Assembly: GCF_963921235.1 (NCBI RefSeq)
Contig: NC_086097.1
Span: forward strand, 6,014,001-6,078,000
Reading direction: 5' to 3'
From: Mobula hypostoma
Taxonomy: Eukaryota
DNA length: 64,000 nucleotides
Positions 4,105 to 64,000 of this stretch are shown piece after piece. How positions within the stretch are numbered: the stretch's first letter is position 1; every line of letters starts with the position of its first letter. A program made the translations under genes and the position numbers. The notes beneath the pieces were generated by a model, which was not told the DNA's origin, did no database searches, and was given only the letters and a program-made list of their open reading frames with translations.

Positions 4105-6002
4105 TATCAGAATCAGAATCAGGTTTGTTATCACCGGCATGTGTCGTGAAAGATGCTAACTTATCAGCAGCAGTCAAATGCAATACATAATATAGAAGAA
4201 AATTCAAAATCAAAATAATAAATAAATGAATACATTGCAGTATATGTAAATTAAACAGATTAAAAACATGCAAATAAGCATAAATAATATATATTAAAAA
4301 AGTGAGGTAGTGCTCAGGGGTTCAATGTCCATTTGGGAAATGAATTGCAGAGGGGAAGAAGCTGTTCCTGAATAGCTGAGTGTGTTCCTTCAGGCTTCTG
4401 TACCTCCTACCTGATGGTAACAGTGGGAAAAGGGCATGTCCTGGTGCTGGGGGTCCTTAATAATGGATGCTGCCTTTCTGGGACACCGCTCCTTGAAGAT
4501 GTCCAGGATACTTTTCAGGCTAGTACCCAAGATGGAGCTGACTAGATTTACAACCCTCTGCGGCTTCCTTTGGTCCTGTACAGTAGCACCCCCATACCAG
4601 ACAGTGATGTAGCCTGTCAGAATGCTCTCCATGGTACATCCATAGAAGTTTTGGAGTGTATTTGTTGACATATCAAATCTCTTCAAAATCCTAATGAAGT
4701 ATAGCCGCTGTCTTCTTTATAACTGCATTGATATGTTGGGACCAGGTTAGATCCTTAGAGATCTTGACATCCAAGATCTCGAAACTCCTCACTCTCTCCA
4801 CTTCTGATCCCTCTATGAGGATTGGTATGTGTTCCTTTGTCTTAATCTTCCTAAAGTACACAATCAGCTCTTTTGTCTTACTGACGTTGAGTGCCATGTT
4901 ATTGCTGTGACACCAGTGCAATAATTGGCATACCTCACTCCTGTAGCCCTCTCGTCACCACCTGAGATTCTACCAACAATGGTTGCATCATCAGCAAAAT
5001 TTTAGATGGTATTTGAGCTATGCCTAGAAAGTAGGGCACTGGGCTAAGCACACACACACACACACACACACACCTGAGGTGCACCAGTGTTGGTCGTCAG
5101 CTGAAGACGAGATGTTACCAATACGTACAAATTGTGGTCTTCTGGTTAGGAAGTCGAGGATCCAATTGCCGAAGGAGGTACAGAGGCCCAGGTTCTACAA
5201 CTTCTCAATCAGGATTGTGGGAATGATGGCATTAAATGCTGAGTTATAGTCGATGAATAACATCCTGATGTAGGTGTCTGTGTTGTCCAGGTGGTCTAAA
5301 ACTATTGAGATTGCATCTGCCATTGACCTATTGTGGTGAGAGGCAAATTGCAATGGGTCCAGGTCTTTGCTGAGGCAGGAGTTCAGTCTAGTCATGATCA
5401 ATCTCTCAAAACATTTCATCACTGTAGATGTGAAGTGCTACCCGGTGATAGTCATTAAGGTAGCTCACATTACTCTTCTTAGGCACTGGTATAATTGTTG
5501 CCTTTTTGAAGCAAGTGGGAACTTTTGCCCATAGCAGTGAGAGGTTGAAAATGTCCTTGAATGCTCCTGCCCGCTGTATTACACAGGTTTTCAGAGCCTT
5601 ACCAGGTACTCCATCAGGACCTTCCACCTTGCAAGGGTTCACTCTCTTTAAAGACAGCCTAACATTGGCCTCCGAGTCAGAGATCACAGGGTCATCAGAT
5701 GCAGCAGGGATCTTCACAGCTGTAGTTATATTCTCCCTTGCAAAGCGTGCATAGAATACGTTGAGTTCATCTGGTAGTGAAGTATTGCTGCCACTCATGC
5801 TATTGGGTTTCGCTTTGAAGGAAATAATGTCTTGCAAACCCTGCCAGAGTTGTTGTACATCCCATGTCATCTCCAACCTCATTTGAAATTGTCTCTTTGC
5901 CCTTTAACTAGCTCTCTGCAAGTCATACCTGGTTTGCTGGTACAGGCCTGGGTCACCAGACTTGAATGCCACAGATCTAGCCTTCAGCAGATGACGTAGC
6001 TC
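4105..6002 (-). mobile_element. Rex1/Babar-clade LINE, 5'-truncated, frameshifted RT
   Basis: Minus ORFs with [39 protein letters not shown] motifs; (TTCTGA)n-type 3' tail at ~4105-4122. Confidence 0.85.
5049..5072. repeat. (CA)12 microsatellite
   Basis: Direct reading; lies inside the Rex1 RT coding remnant. Confidence 0.95.
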
Positions 6003-7412
6003 CTGATGGCAGCAGCAAGAAGAGAGCGAGGGGTCCGTGATGATGGCTGCTGCTTTCCTGAGGCAGCACTGTATGTAGAAGTGCTCAACAGTGGAGAAGG
6101 CTTTACCCATGATGGACTGGCCAGTATCCACTCCAGGAGGTAAGTACTCCACTCTTGTCATTGGTTCATTATGTGCTGTGATGTATGACATGGGGGATTG
6201 CGATTTTTCCATGACCATAGTTGTCCCTGGTAATTTTTCCTACAGAAGTGGTTTGCCATTGCCTTCTTCTGGGCAGTGTCTTTAGAAGACACATGACCCC
6301 AGCCATTACCAATACTCTTCAGAGATTGCCAGCCTGTCGTGAGTGACCACATAGCCAAGACTTGAGATAAGCACGAACTGCTCATACGACAAACCATAGC
6401 TTGATGTGATCCTGATCGGGGTGGGTAGGGCTAAGCAGGTGATACGCCTTACCCAAGGGTGATCAGCAGGCGAGCGAAGGGAAGGAATACCTTACACCTG
6501 CTTTGATAGAGACATACCTCCACTTCACCACACTTTATAATCATTTTGGTTCTTCAGCGCAATAGTGAAGATGAGTTCAAGATTGTGTGATGCTATTTCT
6601 AGTGCACAAGTGTAAAGGAGAACAAAATAATTGCTACTCAGGATCTGAAGCAGCACAAAAAAACACAAGAAGAAAAAGAACAGCAATATTAAAAAAACAC
6701 AATAAATATAAATACATAAGATAGCTTCTCTACATAGATTGATTATGTCCATAAAGTGACACCAAGGTGTACATAAAGTGATGGATGGGAAATAATAATA
6801 AAGTAGAGGTGGATTTAGTGGATGGAGGTTTTGATCAGCCTTACTGCTTGGGCTAAGTAACTGTTTATAGGCTTGAGCAGTTATAGACAGAGGGAAAGAT
6901 CTGATAATGTGAATATAAAGATAGAATTTTAACCTGCTTAACTAGAAGCATATGTTTGTCTGCAACCATATGGCTGGCAGGTGAACAGAGCTTATAGGTA
7001 TCAGAGTTTTCATTGTCCTCAGGAATACAGGGGCCAATCTGAATTGCAAAGGAATGCGAGGTCAGTGGATAGCAAATGCATGGATCCGGGTTTCACCTGG
7101 AGATCAAATAATGTTGTCAGAAGCTTTCTGAAAACTTCAGTGTTCCTGACAGATAAGTTGGCACGGAAGTGTTTACAATTGTAATCTGTGTATTATATCA
7201 CCATGAATGAATGCAGAAAAAGAATGCTCTGGATAAAGTCGAGATTAAAACTTAATAGCTTCTCAGAAACCAATTTAAGAGAAATGGTTCCAGATTGTCT
7301 GAAATGGCTAGCATGAGGGGACATAGTATTAAGGTGCTTGGAAATAGGTAAAGGGTGATGTCAGGGGTAAGTTTTTCACACAGAGAGTGGTGGGTGCCTG
7401 GAAAGCACTGCC

Positions 7413-9302: not shown

Positions 9303-10927
9303 CAGTGCCTATAAAAAGTATTTACCTCCCCTTGGAAGTTTTCAAGTTTTATGGTTTTACAACACTGAATCATAATCGATTTAATTTGGTCCTTTTTGAC
9401 ACTGATCACAGGAAAAGACTCGTGTCAAAGTGAAAACAGATCTCTGCAAAGTGTTCAAAATTAATTACAAATATAAAACACAAAATAATTGATTCCTTAA
9501 GTATTCATCCCCTTTAATATGACACAACAAATCATCACTAGTACAGTCAATTGGTTTTAGAAGTCACATAATTAGCTAAGATGTCAGAGCTATAGATAAA
9601 CCTGTATGTAGTCAAGGTGTTTCAATTGATTGTAGTAAAACAACACCTGTATATGGAAGGTCCAATTGCTGGTGAGTCAATATCCTGGCAAAAACTACAC
9701 CATGAAGACAAAAGAACACTCTAAGCATCTGTGAAAGAGGTTATTGAAAAGTATAAGTCAGGAGATGGATACATGAATATTTCCAAGTCACTAAACATCT
9801 CTTGGAGTGCAGTTAAGCCAATCATAAAGAAATGGAAAAATAATATGGCATAACTGCAAATCTGCCAAGAGCAGGCTGCCCTCGAAAACTGAGTGACCAT
9901 GCAAGAAAGGGACTAGTGAGGGAGGCCACCAAGAAACCTACAACAACTCTGGTGAAGTTACAAACTTCAGTTACTGTGGTGGGAGAGATGTACATGCAAC
10001 AACTGCTGCCCGGGTACTTCACGAGTTGCAACTTGATGGGAGAGTGGTGAAGAGAAAGCCACTGTTGAAAAAAACCCACATGAAATCCTGGCTAGCGTTT
10101 GCCATAAGGCATGTGGGAAGCTCTGACGTCAGCAGGAAGAAGGTTCTATGGGCTGATGAAGCCAAAAGTGAACTTTTTGGCCATCAGACTAAATGCCATG
10201 TTTGGCATAAGTCAAATACCACACATCATCAAAAACACAGCACCCTTACTGTGAAGCATGGTGGTGGCCGCATCATGCTGTGGGGATGCTTCACTGCAGC
10301 AGGCTCTGGAAGACTTCTGAAGATAGAAGGCAAAATCAAAGCAGGAAAATACAGGAAAACCTGATGCAGTCTGCAAGAGAACTGTGACTTGGGAGAAGAT
10401 ATGGTTTCCAGCAAGACATTGACCCCAAGCATAAAGCCAAAGCTACACAGGAATGGCTTAAAAACAACAAAGTTAATGTCCTGGAGTGGCCAAGTCAGAG
10501 TCCAGACTTCAATCTAATTGAGAATTTGTGACTGGACTTGAAAAGGGCTGTTCACTCACAATCCCCATGCAATCTGACAGAGCTTGAACAAGTTTGTGAA
10601 GAAGAATGGGGAAAATTGCAGTGTCCAGATGTGCAAAGCTTATAGAGACCAATCCACATAGACTCAAAGCTATAATTGCTGCCAAATGTGCATCTACTAA
10701 ATACTGACTTGAAGGGGGCGAATAACTATGCAATCAATTATTTTGTGTTTTATATTTGTAATTAATTTTGATTATTTTGTAGAGATTTGTTTTCACTTTG
10801 CATGAAAGTGTCTTTTTTTCTGTTGAACAGTGTCAAAAAAGTCAAATTAAATACATTCTGATTCTATGTTGTAAAACAATAAAAAATGAAAACTTTCAAG
10901 GGGTGTGAATAATTTTTACAGGTACTG
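9303..10927 (+). mobile_element. Tc1/mariner DNA transposon, near full length, transposase disrupted
   Basis: Starts TA|CAGTGCC and ends GTACTG; ~200 bp inverted repeats. Transposase remnant ~9702-10708 with [34 protein letters not shown] and [10 protein letters not shown] (DD34E) motifs. Confidence 0.93.
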
Positions 10928-34451: not shown

Positions 34452-34630
34452 ATTAAATAAGATTTAATTTTTAAAACTTAATTCTGGTAGCTCAAGAATG
34501 CCAGTGGGTACAGGACACTCTGAGAGGAGAGGATGGGCAGCCAGAGGTTACGGTCCACATACCTCCCATACCTAATACTCACAACACGCTGGAGGAACTT
34601 AGCAGGTCGGGCAGCATCCATGGAAAAGAT

Positions 34631-34668
34631 CAGTCGACGTTTCGGGCCGGAACCCTTCATCAGGACTG
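34631..34668 (-). ncRNA. Minimal type-I hammerhead ribozyme motif
   Basis: CAGUC-CUGAUGA-A-GGGU(UCCG)GCCC-GAAACGUC-GACUG; stems I and II pair and the core is intact. Confidence 0.8.
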
Positions 34669-34694
34669 TATAGGGCCTCTGCCCCTTCCCTCTA

Positions 34695-34732
34695 CGGTCC
34701 TGACGAAAGGTTCCGGCCCGAAACGTCGACCG
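34695..34732 (+). ncRNA. Minimal type-I hammerhead ribozyme motif
   Basis: CGGUC-CUGACGA-AAGGU(UCCG)GCCC-GAAACGUC-GACCG; predicted cleavage after C34727; one stem II mismatch. Confidence 0.72.
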
Positions 34733-34824
34733 ATCTTTTCCACGGATGCTGCCTGACTTGCTGAGTTCCTCCAGCGTGTTGTGAGTGTTGCTTTGACCCC
34801 AGCATCTGCAGATTATTTTGTGTT

Positions 34825-45589: not shown

Positions 45590-46457
45590 GTCATCATCAC
45601 AGTGTTTGAGTGAACATAAGGTGGTGATCTTAAGGCTTTAGTGCTTCAAGGCTTTAGTGAAGAGAGGCTTCACTGAGAAAAAATAAAGGAAAGAAAAGCT
45701 CTTCCTTCTGTTAGTCCTGACGAAGGGTCTCGGCCTGAAACATCGACTGCGCCTCTTCCTATAGATGCTGCTTGGCCTGCTGCGTTCACCAGCAACTTTG
45801 ATGTGTGTTGCTTGAATTTCCAGCATCTGCAGAATTCCTGTTGTTTGTGAAAGAAAAGCTCAAGCTTTTTCCTTCTCTTCTTTATATCTGCTCAGCTAGG
45901 ATAGTAGGGATGACAGGCAGGATAGTAAAATGCTCCTTTTGTGAGATGCAGGAAGGCAGGGAGACCTCCAGTGTCCCTGACGACCACAACTGTGAGAAGT
46001 GCATCCAGCTGCAGCTTCTAACAAACCATGTTAAGGAGTTGGAGCTGGAACCGGATGAACTCTGGATGATTTTGGAACTGAAGCAGTGATAGTTAGGACA
46101 TATAGAGAGGTAGCTCCCCACAGTGCCTCTGAGACTCAGAAGGTAAGTGGGGAGAAGGGGCACGCTGTGGTGATAGGGGATTTGTTAGTTAGGGGAACAG
46201 ACAAGAGGTTCGCAGAGATTCCTGAATGGTATGTTGCCTCCCGGGTGCCATGGTCTGGGATATCTCAGATTGAGTCCTCAGTATTCTTAAGTGGGAGGGT
46301 GAACAGCCAGAAGTCATGGTCAATGTAGGTACCAATGACATGGGTAGGACGAGTGATGAGGTTCTACATAGAAGCTCAGTGAGTTAGGTGTTAAGTTAAA
46401 GGGCAGGACCTCCAGGGTTGTGAACACAGGATTGTTACCTGTGCCATGTGCTGGTGA
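45590..46457 (+). mobile_element. CR1 5' region/ORF1 (zinc finger plus SGNH esterase) remnant
   Basis: CSFCEM..CEKCIQLQLL; VVIGDLLVRG; VGTND. Confidence 0.8.
45702..45846 (+). mobile_element. Penelope-type mini-retroposon (subfamily A, single arm) with hammerhead motif at 45713-45748
   Basis: AGTC-CTGACGA-AGGGTCTCGGCCT-GAAACATC-GACT; TSD GAAAGAAAAGCTC (45689-45701 / 45849-45861). Confidence 0.85.
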
Positions 46458-56727: not shown

Positions 56728-56862
56728 CACTCGCAACACGACAAACGGTTCCAGCCCGAAATGTCGACTGATCATTTCCACGGATGCTGCCTGACCTGCT
56801 GAGTTCCTCCAGCATGTTGTGAGTGCTGCTTTGACCCCAGCATCTGCAGATTATTTTGTGTT
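56728..56862 (+). mobile_element. Penelope-type mini-retroposon (subfamily B); hammerhead 5' half missing
   Basis: Short inverted 5' stub CACTCGCAACACG; body matches 34708-34823; flanks TAGATAGGCA / TAGATAGACA. Confidence 0.75.
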
Positions 56863-61052: not shown

Positions 61053-61920
61053 AATAACACTGCTCCGACAGCGTGCAGTGTAAAGTGAGTCTAAGGACGG
61101 AAGATTGGTTTGTGTGATGTGCTGCGCTTGTGTTCATGATCTTCTGCAGCTTCTTCTGGTCTTGGACAGGACAACTTCCATACTTCCTGAGAAAACTAAA
61201 GAAATTTGGCCTGTCTCCTCAAACCCTCACTAATTTTTATAGATGACAGTAGAAAGTATTTTCCTATGGTGCATCACAACCTGGTATGGAAGTTGTCCTG
61301 TCCAAGACTGGAAGAAGCTGCAGAAGATCGTGAACACAGCCCAGCACATCACACAAACCAATCTTCCATCCTTGGAAACAACAGGAATTCTGCAGATGCT
61401 GGAAATTCAAGCAACATACATCAAAGTTGCTGGTGAACGCAGCAGGCCAGGCAGCATCTATAGGAAGAGGCGCAGTCGACGTTTCAGGCCGAGACCCTTC
61501 GTCAGGACTTCCATCCTTGGACTCACTTTACACCGCACACTGTCAGAGCAGTGCTGCCAGGATAATCAAGGACACGACCCACCCAGCCAACACACTTTTT
61601 ATCCCTCTTCCCTCCGGGAGAAGGCTCAGGAGCTTAAAGACTCATACGGTCAGATTTGGGAACAGCTTCTTTCCAACTGTGATAAGACTGCTGAAAGGAT
61701 CCTGACCCGGATCTGGGCCGTACCCTCCAAATATCCGGACCTGCCTCTCGGTTTTTTTGCACTACGTTACTTTCCATTTTCTATTTTCTATTTATGATTT
61801 ATAATTTAAATTTTTAATATTTACTGTCGATTTGTACTCCAGGGAGGGGGAAGCGCAGAATCAAATATCACTATGATGATTGTACGTTCTAGTATCAATT
61901 GTTTGGTGACAATAAAGTAT
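61053..61920 (+). mobile_element. Rex1/Babar 3' fragment with an inverted duplicate at its 5' side
   Basis: VESI..CITTWYG, KKLQKIV, LPSGRRLRS, SFFP motifs; 61057-61183 is the reverse complement of the downstream segment. Confidence 0.8.
61376..61509 (-). mobile_element. Penelope-type mini-retroposon (subfamily A, single arm) with intact hammerhead motif at 61474-61509
   Basis: Minus strand AGUC-CUGACGA-AGGGUCUCGGCCU-GAAACGUC-GACU; TSD CTTCCATCCTTGGA (61363-61376 / 61508-61521). Confidence 0.88.
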
Positions 61921-63333
61921 AAATGGAGCTGGTGATCTGGTCAGAATTATGGAATCCTCAATGCAGATGTACAAGCAGATTCCTCTTGTAAGTTTTCATG
62001 TTTTATTGTTTTACAACATTGAATCACAGTGTGTTTAATTTGGCTAATTTGACACTGATCAACAGAAAAAGACTTCTGCATCAAAGTGAAAACCGATCTG
62101 TACAAAGTAATCTAAATTAATTACAAATATAAAACACAAATAATTGATTGCAGAAGTATTCACCCCCTTTAATATGACACACCAAATCATCACTGGTGCA
62201 GCCAACTGGTTTTTGAGGTCACATAATTAGTTAAATGAAGATCTATTTTTGGAAACCTGTGTGCAGTCAAGGTGTTTCAATTGATTGCAGTAAAAATACA
62301 CCTCTATCTGGAAGGTCCAACTGTTGTTAAGTCAGAACCCAAGCAAAAACTAAAAAAGAAGACAAAGGAACACTCCAAGCAACTCCATAAACAATACAAG
62401 TCAAGATATGGAAACAAGAAAATTTCCAAGTCACTGAATATCCCTTAGAGTACAGCTAAGTCAATCATCAAGAAACAGAAAGAATATGACACAGCTGTAA
62501 ATCTGCCTAGAGCAGACTGTCTTCAAAAACTGAATGACTGTGCAAGAAGGAGACTAGTGAGGGAGGCCACCCACCTATGACAACTCTGGAGGAGTGGCTG
62601 AGATGGGAGAGACTGCGCAGACAACGACTGTTGCCCAGGTGCTTCACCAGTCACAGCTTTATGAAGGAGTGGCAAAGAGAAAGCCATTGTTGAAAAAAAC
62701 TCACATTAAATCTTGGCTAGAGTTTGACAGAGTCATGTGGAGAACTCTGAAGTCAGCTGGAAGAAAGTTCTATGGTTTGCTGAAACCAAAACTGAGCTTT
62801 TTGGCCATCAGACCAAATGTTATGTTTGGTGTTAGCCAAAAACAGTACATCATCAAAAACACACCTTCCCTACAGTGAAGCACGGTGGTGGATGCATCAT
62901 ACTGTAGGGATGCTTCACTCCAGCAGGCCCTGGAAGGCTTATGAATGCAGCAAGATACAGGGAAATCCCGGAGGAAAACCTGAGGCAGTCTGCAAGAGAA
63001 CCGTGATTTGGGAGATTTGTTTTCCGGTAAGACTATGACCCCTAGCATAAAGCCAAAGCTACACAGAAATGGCTTAAACAGAACAAAGTTAATATCCTGG
63101 AGTGGCCAAGTCAGAGCCCAGACCTCAATCCAATTGAAAATTTGTGGCTGAACTTGAAAAAATTAGTTCACTTATGATCCTCATGCAATCTGACAGAGCA
63201 TGAGCAGTTTTGTAAGGAAGAATCGGGAAAAATTACAGTGTCCTGGTGTGCAAAGCCAACACAGACTCAAGGCTCACACATAAAAGTTGCTGGTGAACGC
63301 AGCAGGCCAGGCAGCATCTCTAGGAAGAGGTGC

Positions 63334-63369
63334 AGTCGACGTTTCAGGCCGAGACCCTTCGTCAGGACT
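63334..63369 (-). ncRNA. Minimal type-I hammerhead ribozyme motif (core intact)
   Basis: AGUC-CUGACGA-AGGGUCUCGGCCU-GAAACGUC-GACU. Confidence 0.78.
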
Positions 63370-63432
63370 AACTGAAGGAAGAGTGAGTAAGGGATTTGAA
63401 AGTGGGAGCACTTACTCACTCTTCCTTCAGTT

Positions 63433-63468
63433 AGTCCCGACGAAGGGTCTCGGCCTGAAACGTCGACT
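63433..63468 (+). ncRNA. Hammerhead motif with a core mutation (CCGACGA)
   Basis: Same as the opposite arm, but U4 to C at 63438. Confidence 0.6.
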
Positions 63469-64000
63469 GCACCTCTTCCTAGAGATGCTGCCTGGCCTGC
63501 TGCGTTCACCAGCAACTTTGATGTGTGTTGCTTGAATTTCCAGCATCTGCGGAATTCCTGTTGTTTACAGACTCAAGGCTGTAATTTCTGCCGATAGTGC
63601 ATCTATTAAATACTGACTAGAAGGGGGTGAATACTTATTCAAGCACTTATTTTGTGCTTTATATTTGTAATTAATTTAGGTCACTTTGTAAAGATCTGTT
63701 TTCACTTTGGCACTAAAGAGTCATTTTCTGTTGTCAAAGCACCAAATTAAATCCACTGTGAATTATTGTTATAAAACAATGAAACATGAAAACTTCTAAG
63801 AGGGTGAATATTTTTTATATACATATATATTAAATAAATATTTCATAAAAAGAACAAAATAAGAAAAAAATAGTGAGGGAACATGGGTTCATTGTCCATT
63901 CAGAAATCTGATGGCAGAGGGGAAGAGGCTGTTCCTGAAATGTTGAGTGTTTGTCTTCAGACTCCTTGACGGTAGAAATGGCACAAGGACATGTCCTGAG

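Follow-up and report, generated by a model that had tools for sequence, protein, structure and literature searches.

A 292-bp palindrome with hammerhead motifs in Mobula hypostoma is very probably a single integration product of an autonomous Penelope-like element

A stretch of 64,000 nucleotides of Mobula hypostoma DNA (RefSeq assembly GCF_963921235.1, contig NC_086097.1, positions 6,014,001 to 6,078,000 of the forward strand; hereafter the window) contains a 292-bp palindrome at 63275-63566, which carries a hammerhead ribozyme motif in each arm and interrupts the transposase remnant of a Tc1 element. We find that this palindrome is very probably a dead-on-arrival insertion left by one integration event of an autonomous Penelope-like element (PLE). 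The parent PLE is about 3.5 kb long and fuses a reverse transcriptase (RT) to a C-terminal GIY-YIG endonuclease domain. An initial annotation of the window had instead proposed a protein-free, ribozyme-bearing mini-retroposon mobilised in trans by a PLE protein. That proposal is not supported by two results described below, namely an internal junction that is unique in the genome and a 3′ end that falls into the continuous truncation series of the autonomous element. All positions refer to the window unless a locus is named, and the genome-wide searches were run against the same assembly of 3.48 Gb.

The palindrome is composed of two copies of the PLE 3′ end, which face each other head to head and are surrounded by one target-site duplication (TSD) (Table 1). 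The anatomy originally described, with 117-bp arms, a 19-nt spacer, a 39-nt tail and a perfect 14-bp TSD, matches base for base. All 134 nt of the inverted copy match a contiguous 3′ region of other copies of the family at 93-100%, and this copy aligns at positions 2083-2216 of the reference locus L032 with 97.0% identity. It runs 17 nt deeper into the parental sequence than the direct copy does, and the 19-nt spacer therefore consists of 17 nt of parental sequence and a 2-nt filler. Arms of 125 nt at 96% were reported by an automated repeat finder, because five of the next eight bases pair by chance into the duplication. RNA from either strand of the palindrome is predicted to form a rod of -252.1 kcal/mol (z -30.4 and -32.2, with 0 of 200 shuffles as stable), as had been claimed for both strands. 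Only 2 of 117 arm positions are mismatched, and the element carries about three private changes and is about 1% away from the family majority, so the insertion is young.

Table 1. Features of the palindrome and of its host element, in window positions.
Feature	Position	Strand	Length or sequence	Basis or remark
Inverted arms	63275-63391 and 63411-63527		117 nt each, 2 mismatches	reading and repeat search
Spacer between arms	63392-63410		19 nt	
TSD, left copy	63261-63274		14 bp, ACAGACTCAAGGCT	perfect direct repeat, single in sister Tc1
TSD, right copy	63567-63580		14 bp, ACAGACTCAAGGCT	perfect direct repeat
Inverted tail-less PLE 3′-end copy	63275..63408	-	134 nt	ends outward at the family's proximal 3′ terminus
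Filler at head-to-head junction	63409..63410		2 nt (CA)	other copies differ past 63408; direct copy from 63411
Direct 5′-truncated PLE 3′-end copy including tail	63411..63566	+	156 nt	
Unpaired tail, direct copy only	63528..63566	+	39 nt	
Intact minimal type-I hammerhead motif	63334..63369	-		predicted cleavage after GUC, between 63338 and 63337
Same motif, core U4 changed to C (CCGACGA)	63433..63468	+		private change
Host, decayed Tc1/mariner copy, transposase remnant split at 63274/63275	61990..63795	+		Pfam and terminal inverted repeats

The insertion could be verified against an empty site within the window. Two copies of the Tc1/mariner family are present there (9331-10895 and 61990-63795, about 80% identical, with terminal inverted repeats of about 180 bp each), and the second one is the host. 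Its Pfam matches (DDE_3, E 3.8e-9; HTH_Tnp_Tc3_2, E 2.1e-7) are both above the cut-offs, and its terminal inverted repeats lie at 61990-62169 and 63621-63795. The sister copy is unbroken across the insertion site: the left flank of the palindrome aligns with 10077-10639 (81%) and the right flank with 10660-10895 (79%), with no insertion and with the duplicated 14-mer present once between the aligned flanks. The empty site was established by aligning the two flanks separately; the sister, at about 80% identity, is too diverged for the exact predicted empty-site pattern to have a match in the window. These flank alignments bear out both the proposed insertion into a Tc1 transposase and the proposed empty site, and since the sister is contiguous with a single 14-mer, the insertion and its TSD are real.

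The parent element was identified from the 3′ end that both arms share. A genome search with the right arm and its tail yielded 1816 first-look candidates; the best 40 of these were scored, at 97-100% identity over 156 nt, and 30 loci were taken with 1.5-kb flanks as a first sample. All 30 loci end at a common 3′ position, give or take one base, and their 5′ ends are spread from 58 to 1501 (locus coordinates). An upstream walk gave 2043 first-look candidates and a second 5′-truncation series in all 11 loci examined. Such a series is that expected of a retroelement integrating by target-primed reverse transcription, and the window element, with its arms of 134 and 156 nt, is the shortest member.

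The coding part was found in two loci, L032, which is one of four long copies that were extended, and L036, which was reached by the upstream walk. L032 contains an open reading frame of 559 codons (5445-7121, minus strand) that matches RVT_1 (E 3.5e-5) and, above the Pfam cut-off, GIY-YIG (E 7.3e-5), and L036 contains a stop-free frame of 930 codons (RVT_1, E 5.2e-5; GIY-YIG, E 1e-3) that ends about 440 nt before the 3′ end of the element. In the ESM Atlas the nearest clusters (score 0.98) consist of animal proteins that contain RVT_1, GIY-YIG, HTH_animal and DUF8422. At least two cysteines lie between VIY and YIG in the L032 translation, and the linker motif is CX4CxxC. An RT with a C-terminal GIY-YIG domain and cysteines between GIY and YIG characterizes the endonuclease-bearing PLEs (PMC8557442), and by the account given there the linker sequence would suggest a Neptune/Nematis type rather than Penelope/Poseidon. 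We conclude that the parent is an abundant, young PLE of about 3.5 kb with an RT fused to a C-terminal GIY-YIG domain. The PLE origin put forward for the arms is correct in that they are the 3′ end of an RT/GIY-YIG element, and the expected autonomous partner is present in the genome as RT/GIY-YIG copies that share the 156-nt 3′ end. The same PLE 3′ end, at 95% identity or above and at comparable relative depth, is found in the public runs X5-X8, which are labelled as organism B, and the family is common to at least two labelled taxa.

The palindromic layout recurs across this family. Eleven of the 30 loci contain a direct tailed copy with an inverted tail-less copy immediately at its 5′ end. 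Two further loci have the same layout with long arms that are visible only after extension (1664 bp in L032 and 1483 bp in L033), and in three the adjoining inverted copy has an atypical outer end or runs off the edge of the locus. Inverted internal pieces are present in five loci, three of which (L011, L020 and L025) are L1-like 5′ inversions, and no inverted copy is seen in the remaining nine. An inverted 5′-truncated neighbour copy is found in the window element and, in total, in 13-16 of the 30 sampled loci. The junctions between the family's paired copies have either an overlap of 0-2 nt or a filler of 2-66 nt, and of the 12 head-to-head units examined, 11 are bounded as a whole by a shared string of 11-16 bp.

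The tail was distributed unevenly between the partners in both samples. In the first sample the inverted partner was without a tail in 11 of 11 cases. A second sample (best 40 scored of 540 candidates, 29 copies used) was drawn with a query upstream of the hammerhead motif and is hence less biased. The tail is present in 13 of these 29 copies and absent from 16; 14 copies stop 29-49 nt, mostly 32-39 nt, before the tail end, and the four head-to-head pairs with both ends visible all consist of one tailed and one tail-less copy. Four of four public runs show an accumulation of loose contig ends, joined to diverse flanks, at 63531-63533 and 63274-63275, and these ends are the tail-less terminus of many other copies. 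PLE insertions are described as having strong 5′ truncation, an adjoining inverted 5′-truncated copy and a tail of 30-40 bp, often at one end (PMC8557442). The layout of inverted 5′ copy, one-sided tail and TSD had been taken for a PLE insertion signature from the window element, and its recurrence across the sampled loci supports that reading.

Whether the hairpin itself has ever been mobile can be judged from its internal junction. A 34-nt pattern across the junction, searched with up to two mismatches, has one match in the 3.48-Gb genome, and a control pattern has none. The junction is unique, and therefore the hairpin was made once and was never copied as a unit. This makes it very unlikely that the palindrome represents a non-autonomous, protein-free family of hairpin retroposons for which a PLE protein works in trans. 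Non-autonomous PLE derivatives are known in the form of animal retrozymes (bioRxiv 10.64898/2026.07.22.740005), and the hairpin does carry the 3′ end that a PLE RT would recognise, but only a plus-strand transcript of the hairpin would carry the RT start region at its 3′ end. Two other short hairpins (L006 and L010) among the 30 loci speak for such a family, but their breakpoints differ from those of the window hairpin, no second locus shares its junction, and arm length varies continuously across the sample, from 110 to over 1600 nt.

It is likewise highly improbable that two independent PLE insertions came to lie head to head by chance, or that the palindrome arose by rearrangement after insertion. 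The family is very abundant, with other copies only 1.8 kb and 18 kb away in the window, which would favour such an encounter; yet one perfect 14-bp duplication surrounds the whole unit and none surrounds either arm alone, the same layout with flanking duplications is found in 11 of 12 other units, and the 2 differences in 117 arm positions fit one event.

The preferred reading, a single integration of the autonomous PLE, can be described as a series of steps. The endonuclease would nick both strands of the Tc1 target 14 bp apart. The bottom-strand nick would prime RT from a distal start site, producing the direct copy with its 39-nt tail, which was presumably aborted after 156 nt, and the top-strand nick would prime from a proximal site 39 nt further in, producing the tail-less inverted copy that stops after 134 nt. 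The two complementary DNA (cDNA) ends would then be joined head to head with two filler bases, and gap repair would duplicate the 14-bp target. Since it lies about 95-130 nt from the 3′ end of the PLE family, the hammerhead motif would ride along as a passenger in both copies. Beyond what the anatomy, the parent, the truncation series, the recurrent one-tail layout, the duplications and the unique junction directly record, the ideas that both strands are primed and that two start sites are used are modelled on the Anolis PLE, whose protein cleaves and extends both strands in vitro, with RT starting at two adjacent internal sites and the tail being the sequence between them (PMC11167929). Which start site serves which strand is something we infer; the strict pairing of one tailed with one tail-less copy (15 of 15) hints that the two target strands may use different RT start sites in vivo.

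Several observations weigh against this interpretation. Start-site use by the Anolis PLE is equal on both strands in vitro, unlike the head-to-head pairs here, all of which are asymmetric, and the Anolis element prefers AT-rich cleavage targets, unlike the target here, which is not AT-rich (PMC11167929). One of the 12 head-to-head units examined (L029) is without a duplication, and both samples consist of best-scoring candidates, so that their frequencies are not genome-wide estimates. On the side of the parent, the RVT_1 scores of 23.5-24 bits are below the curated Pfam cut-off of 29.6 bits, the GIY-YIG match of L036 is also below its cut-off (19.8 vs 22.6), and PDB and NCBIfam searches with the 930-residue frame of L036 returned nothing. 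L036 also shows just the last 46 nt of a preceding unit before its 5′ region, and no full upstream pseudo-long terminal repeat (pseudo-LTR).

Some details of the tail region concern the start sites. A few extra bases (GCGTTT...) are present past the usual tail end in L018, L021 and L023, just after locus position 1656, and 1-3 extra bases lie between the tail end and the duplication in L006 and L016; these suggest a third, more distal start site or untemplated additions. In the window element, AGATGCUG in the body (63483-63490) can pair with CAGCAUCU in the tail (63542-63549). The same blocks occur in an older PLE family of the window at about 34744-34750 and 34801-34807, and they are conserved in both families, invariant and without covariation. 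The tail-less terminus falls in the loop or on the 3′ side of a small stem (AGCAAC ... GUUGCU). Judged from the pairing of these blocks, the stem between body and tail may set the two start sites of reverse transcription.

The hammerhead said to lie on each strand is intact on one of them only. The left arm reads AGUC-CUGACGA-A-GGGUCUCGGCCU-GAAAC-GUC-GACU on the minus strand, with the core boxes CUGANGA and GAAA and an N-U-H cleavage triplet all present, while the right arm reads CCGACGA on the plus strand, a change at the invariant core position U4. Helix I is formed by AGUC/GACU plus a U-G pair, positions 15.2-16.2 are palindromic, the extra A after A9 is unpaired, and helix III is absent, with GAAAC running straight into GUC. 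Helix II closes with a G-U pair in 48 of 52 family copies and with G-C in 4 of 52, rather than consistently with G10.1-C11.1; the closing pair is G-C in the older related family.

These features match the minimal hammerhead ribozymes (min-HHRs) that sit in the flanking repeats of metazoan PLEs (Cervera and De la Pena 2014, PMC4209133), and the attribution to the PLE type is confirmed by this match. CUGANGA, GAAA, the GUC triplet and the absence of helix III are common to both, as are a palindromic C15.2-G16.2, a helix I of 4-5 bp and an unpaired base between 9 and 10.1. The differences are that helix II here closes with G-U and not with the usual G10.1-C11.1, a pair termed highly conserved and not obligatory in that source, that it has about 4 bp with a CUCG loop vs 7-8 bp in Schistosoma, and that the plus-strand copy here is mutated at U4. 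The same source reports no cleavage of min-HHR monomers and predicts that they act as dimers; it also describes pairs on opposite strands 100-700 bp apart and explains widespread single motifs by PLE truncation.

The pattern CTGANGA-N10-16-GAAACGTC occurs four times in the window vs none in 100 shuffles. Compared with the diverged sister family in the window, the motif block is conserved at 29 of 36 positions, and the segments downstream of it at 34 of 59 and 27 of 39; in this single comparison, the block appears to be the best conserved segment between the two families, which is a modest indication. In the related family at 34.7 kb, helix I has G-C in place of A-U as its outer pair.

The search with Rfam hammerhead models gave no support to the motif. 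There were no matches in the whole window at the gathering score, and no hammerhead family was matched at E<=10 on 63200-63650, where only sub-threshold plant and animal microRNA hairpin models and PrrB/RsmZ appeared, far below gathering; a single arm gave nothing but a 10-nt small nucleolar RNA fragment, and no hammerhead. The Rfam hammerhead models include helix III, and the lack of a match is explained by a motif without it, while the sub-threshold microRNA matches are artefacts of the long perfect hairpin. The lowest-energy fold of the motif monomer pairs the core GACG with CGUC and is not the active fold. Energy folding of monomer and dimer did not reproduce the hammerhead fold, a result that is uninformative for this core because it relies on non-canonical contacts. 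When the whole hairpin is folded as RNA, every part of the motif is predicted to be base-paired.

Ten of 12 pairs in the first sample combine a direct copy with CCGACGA and an inverted partner with CTGACGA. A systematic difference between the arms, produced by editing or by two templates, was considered and rejected, as the second sample has T at U4 in 28 of 28 recognised motifs of its 29 copies (25 of them CTGACGA). The apparent asymmetry arose because the loci had been ranked by identity to a query carrying the private C. A tail base that is G in the window copy is A in 13 of 13 copies of the second sample; the motif C and the tail G of the window copy are therefore both private.

The window also contains other PLE copies. 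Two single-arm, tailed and 5′-truncated copies of the same family lie at 61376-61509 (minus strand, 134 nt) and at about 45698-45848 (plus strand, about 149 nt), with 11-bp duplications of TCCATCCTTGG and GAAAGAAAAGC, respectively; in the first of them, the truncation falls one base before helix I, right at the 5′ border of the hammerhead motif. An older head-to-head PLE hairpin of the related family, about 81% identical to the palindrome described here, occupies 34580-34824; its arms measure about 88 nt, its spacer about 28 nt and its one-sided tail 41 nt, and the flanking duplication is CCCATACC(T/C)AATA. Its left arm contains a canonical-looking CUGAUGA-A-GGGUUCCGGCCC-GAAAC-GUC with a G10.1-C11.1 pair. 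A decayed fragment (about 78%) of the 3′ end of the older family, with a degraded hammerhead core, is located at 56740-56814.

As far as its sequence goes, nothing about the window element would indicate a function: the plus-strand motif is mutated, each strand has one sense motif, and the motif is predicted to be paired within the hairpin. The ideas of self-cleavage and of a double-stranded RNA (dsRNA) source are already in print for PLEs (PMC4209133, PMC11167929, PMC3681739), and published minimal hammerheads showed cleavage solely as dimers or in the presence of protein. The Anolis motif needed protein to cleave, and insertion in vitro could do without the motif (PMC11167929). There is a very slim chance that the palindrome is a functional hairpin RNA gene exapted from a PLE, be it a precursor of a microRNA or small interfering RNA (siRNA) or a regulated ribozyme. 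The extremely stable rod fold would suit such a gene, and rearranged inverted-repeat copies of Penelope yield siRNAs in transformed Drosophila (PMC3681739); the locus, however, is unique and young, about 1% from the family majority and placed inside a dead Tc1, and the Rfam microRNA matches, far below gathering, reflect the long perfect hairpin. None of the public runs listed is recorded as RNA. An enormous summed depth over the arms is seen in all four public runs examined, because the whole family contributes, and it has no bearing on transcription of the window locus; among the pieces listed, only DNA contigs of X1 bridge both flank junctions. More broadly, though still doubtfully, read-through transcripts of short head-to-head PLE products may be diced into siRNAs against the young PLE family, which, if true, would be a vertebrate counterpart of the inverted-repeat Penelope siRNAs in Drosophila. 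A foldback element or a miniature inverted-repeat transposable element (MITE) of a DNA transposon with 117-bp terminal inverted repeats, which the inverted termini and the TSD might recall, is scarcely credible, as the arms correspond to the untranslated 3′ end of an RT/GIY-YIG retroelement, the ends are asymmetric owing to the one-sided 39-nt tail, and the duplication size varies from 11 to 16 bp among units.

The closest known systems are the complex PLE insertions (Craig et al. 2021, PMC8557442; Frangieh et al. 2024, PMC11167929), which share with the window element the 5′ truncation, the abutting inverted copy, the tail at one end, the TSD of variable length and the parent with RT and GIY-YIG. 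There is no difference in kind, and the window copy is extreme in the shortness of its two arms. For LINE-1, Ostertag and Kazazian reportedly described twin priming in 2001, in which a second nick primes cDNA of the opposite strand and an inverted segment results within one duplication. Priming from a second nick and an inverted segment inside a single duplication would thus be common to both systems. L1 is said to invert sequence upstream of the breakpoint, whereas both copies of the window element start at the element 3′ end, and it is because they do so, at two sites 39 nt apart, that a palindrome results. The 5′ inversions in L011, L020 and L025 of the same PLE family resemble twin priming, the inverted piece being the sequence just upstream of the breakpoint.

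Animal non-LTR retrozymes are said to have been described by Cervera and De la Pena in 2020. Like the window element, they are non-coding, hammerhead-bearing and related to PLE pseudo-LTRs (Li et al. 2026 preprint). Retrozymes propagate as families and consist of tandem direct repeats whose hammerheads are of canonical type I, whereas the window element has just one pair of copies, inverted to each other, offers a single sense motif on each strand and was never copied. Rearranged Penelope copies in Drosophila (PMC3681739) have in common with it the inverted PLE repeats and a possible role as dsRNA source; they belong to a fly host with siRNAs, whereas the present element lies in a vertebrate-sized genome of 3.48 Gb.

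The outcome is a clean negative, in which a striking palindrome with ribozyme motifs is very probably the shortest form of a known PLE by-product and not a new class of mobile RNA. Such hairpins carry a risk for annotation, since they can be mistaken for MITEs or microRNA precursors, as the sub-threshold Rfam microRNA matches illustrate. The palindrome is also a compact record of one PLE integration, which keeps both 3′ termini 39 nt apart, both cDNA stop points, the junction with its 2-nt filler and the 14-bp staggered cut. With a family this young and abundant, the genome could serve to test the model of two start sites and two-strand priming that has come from in vitro work.

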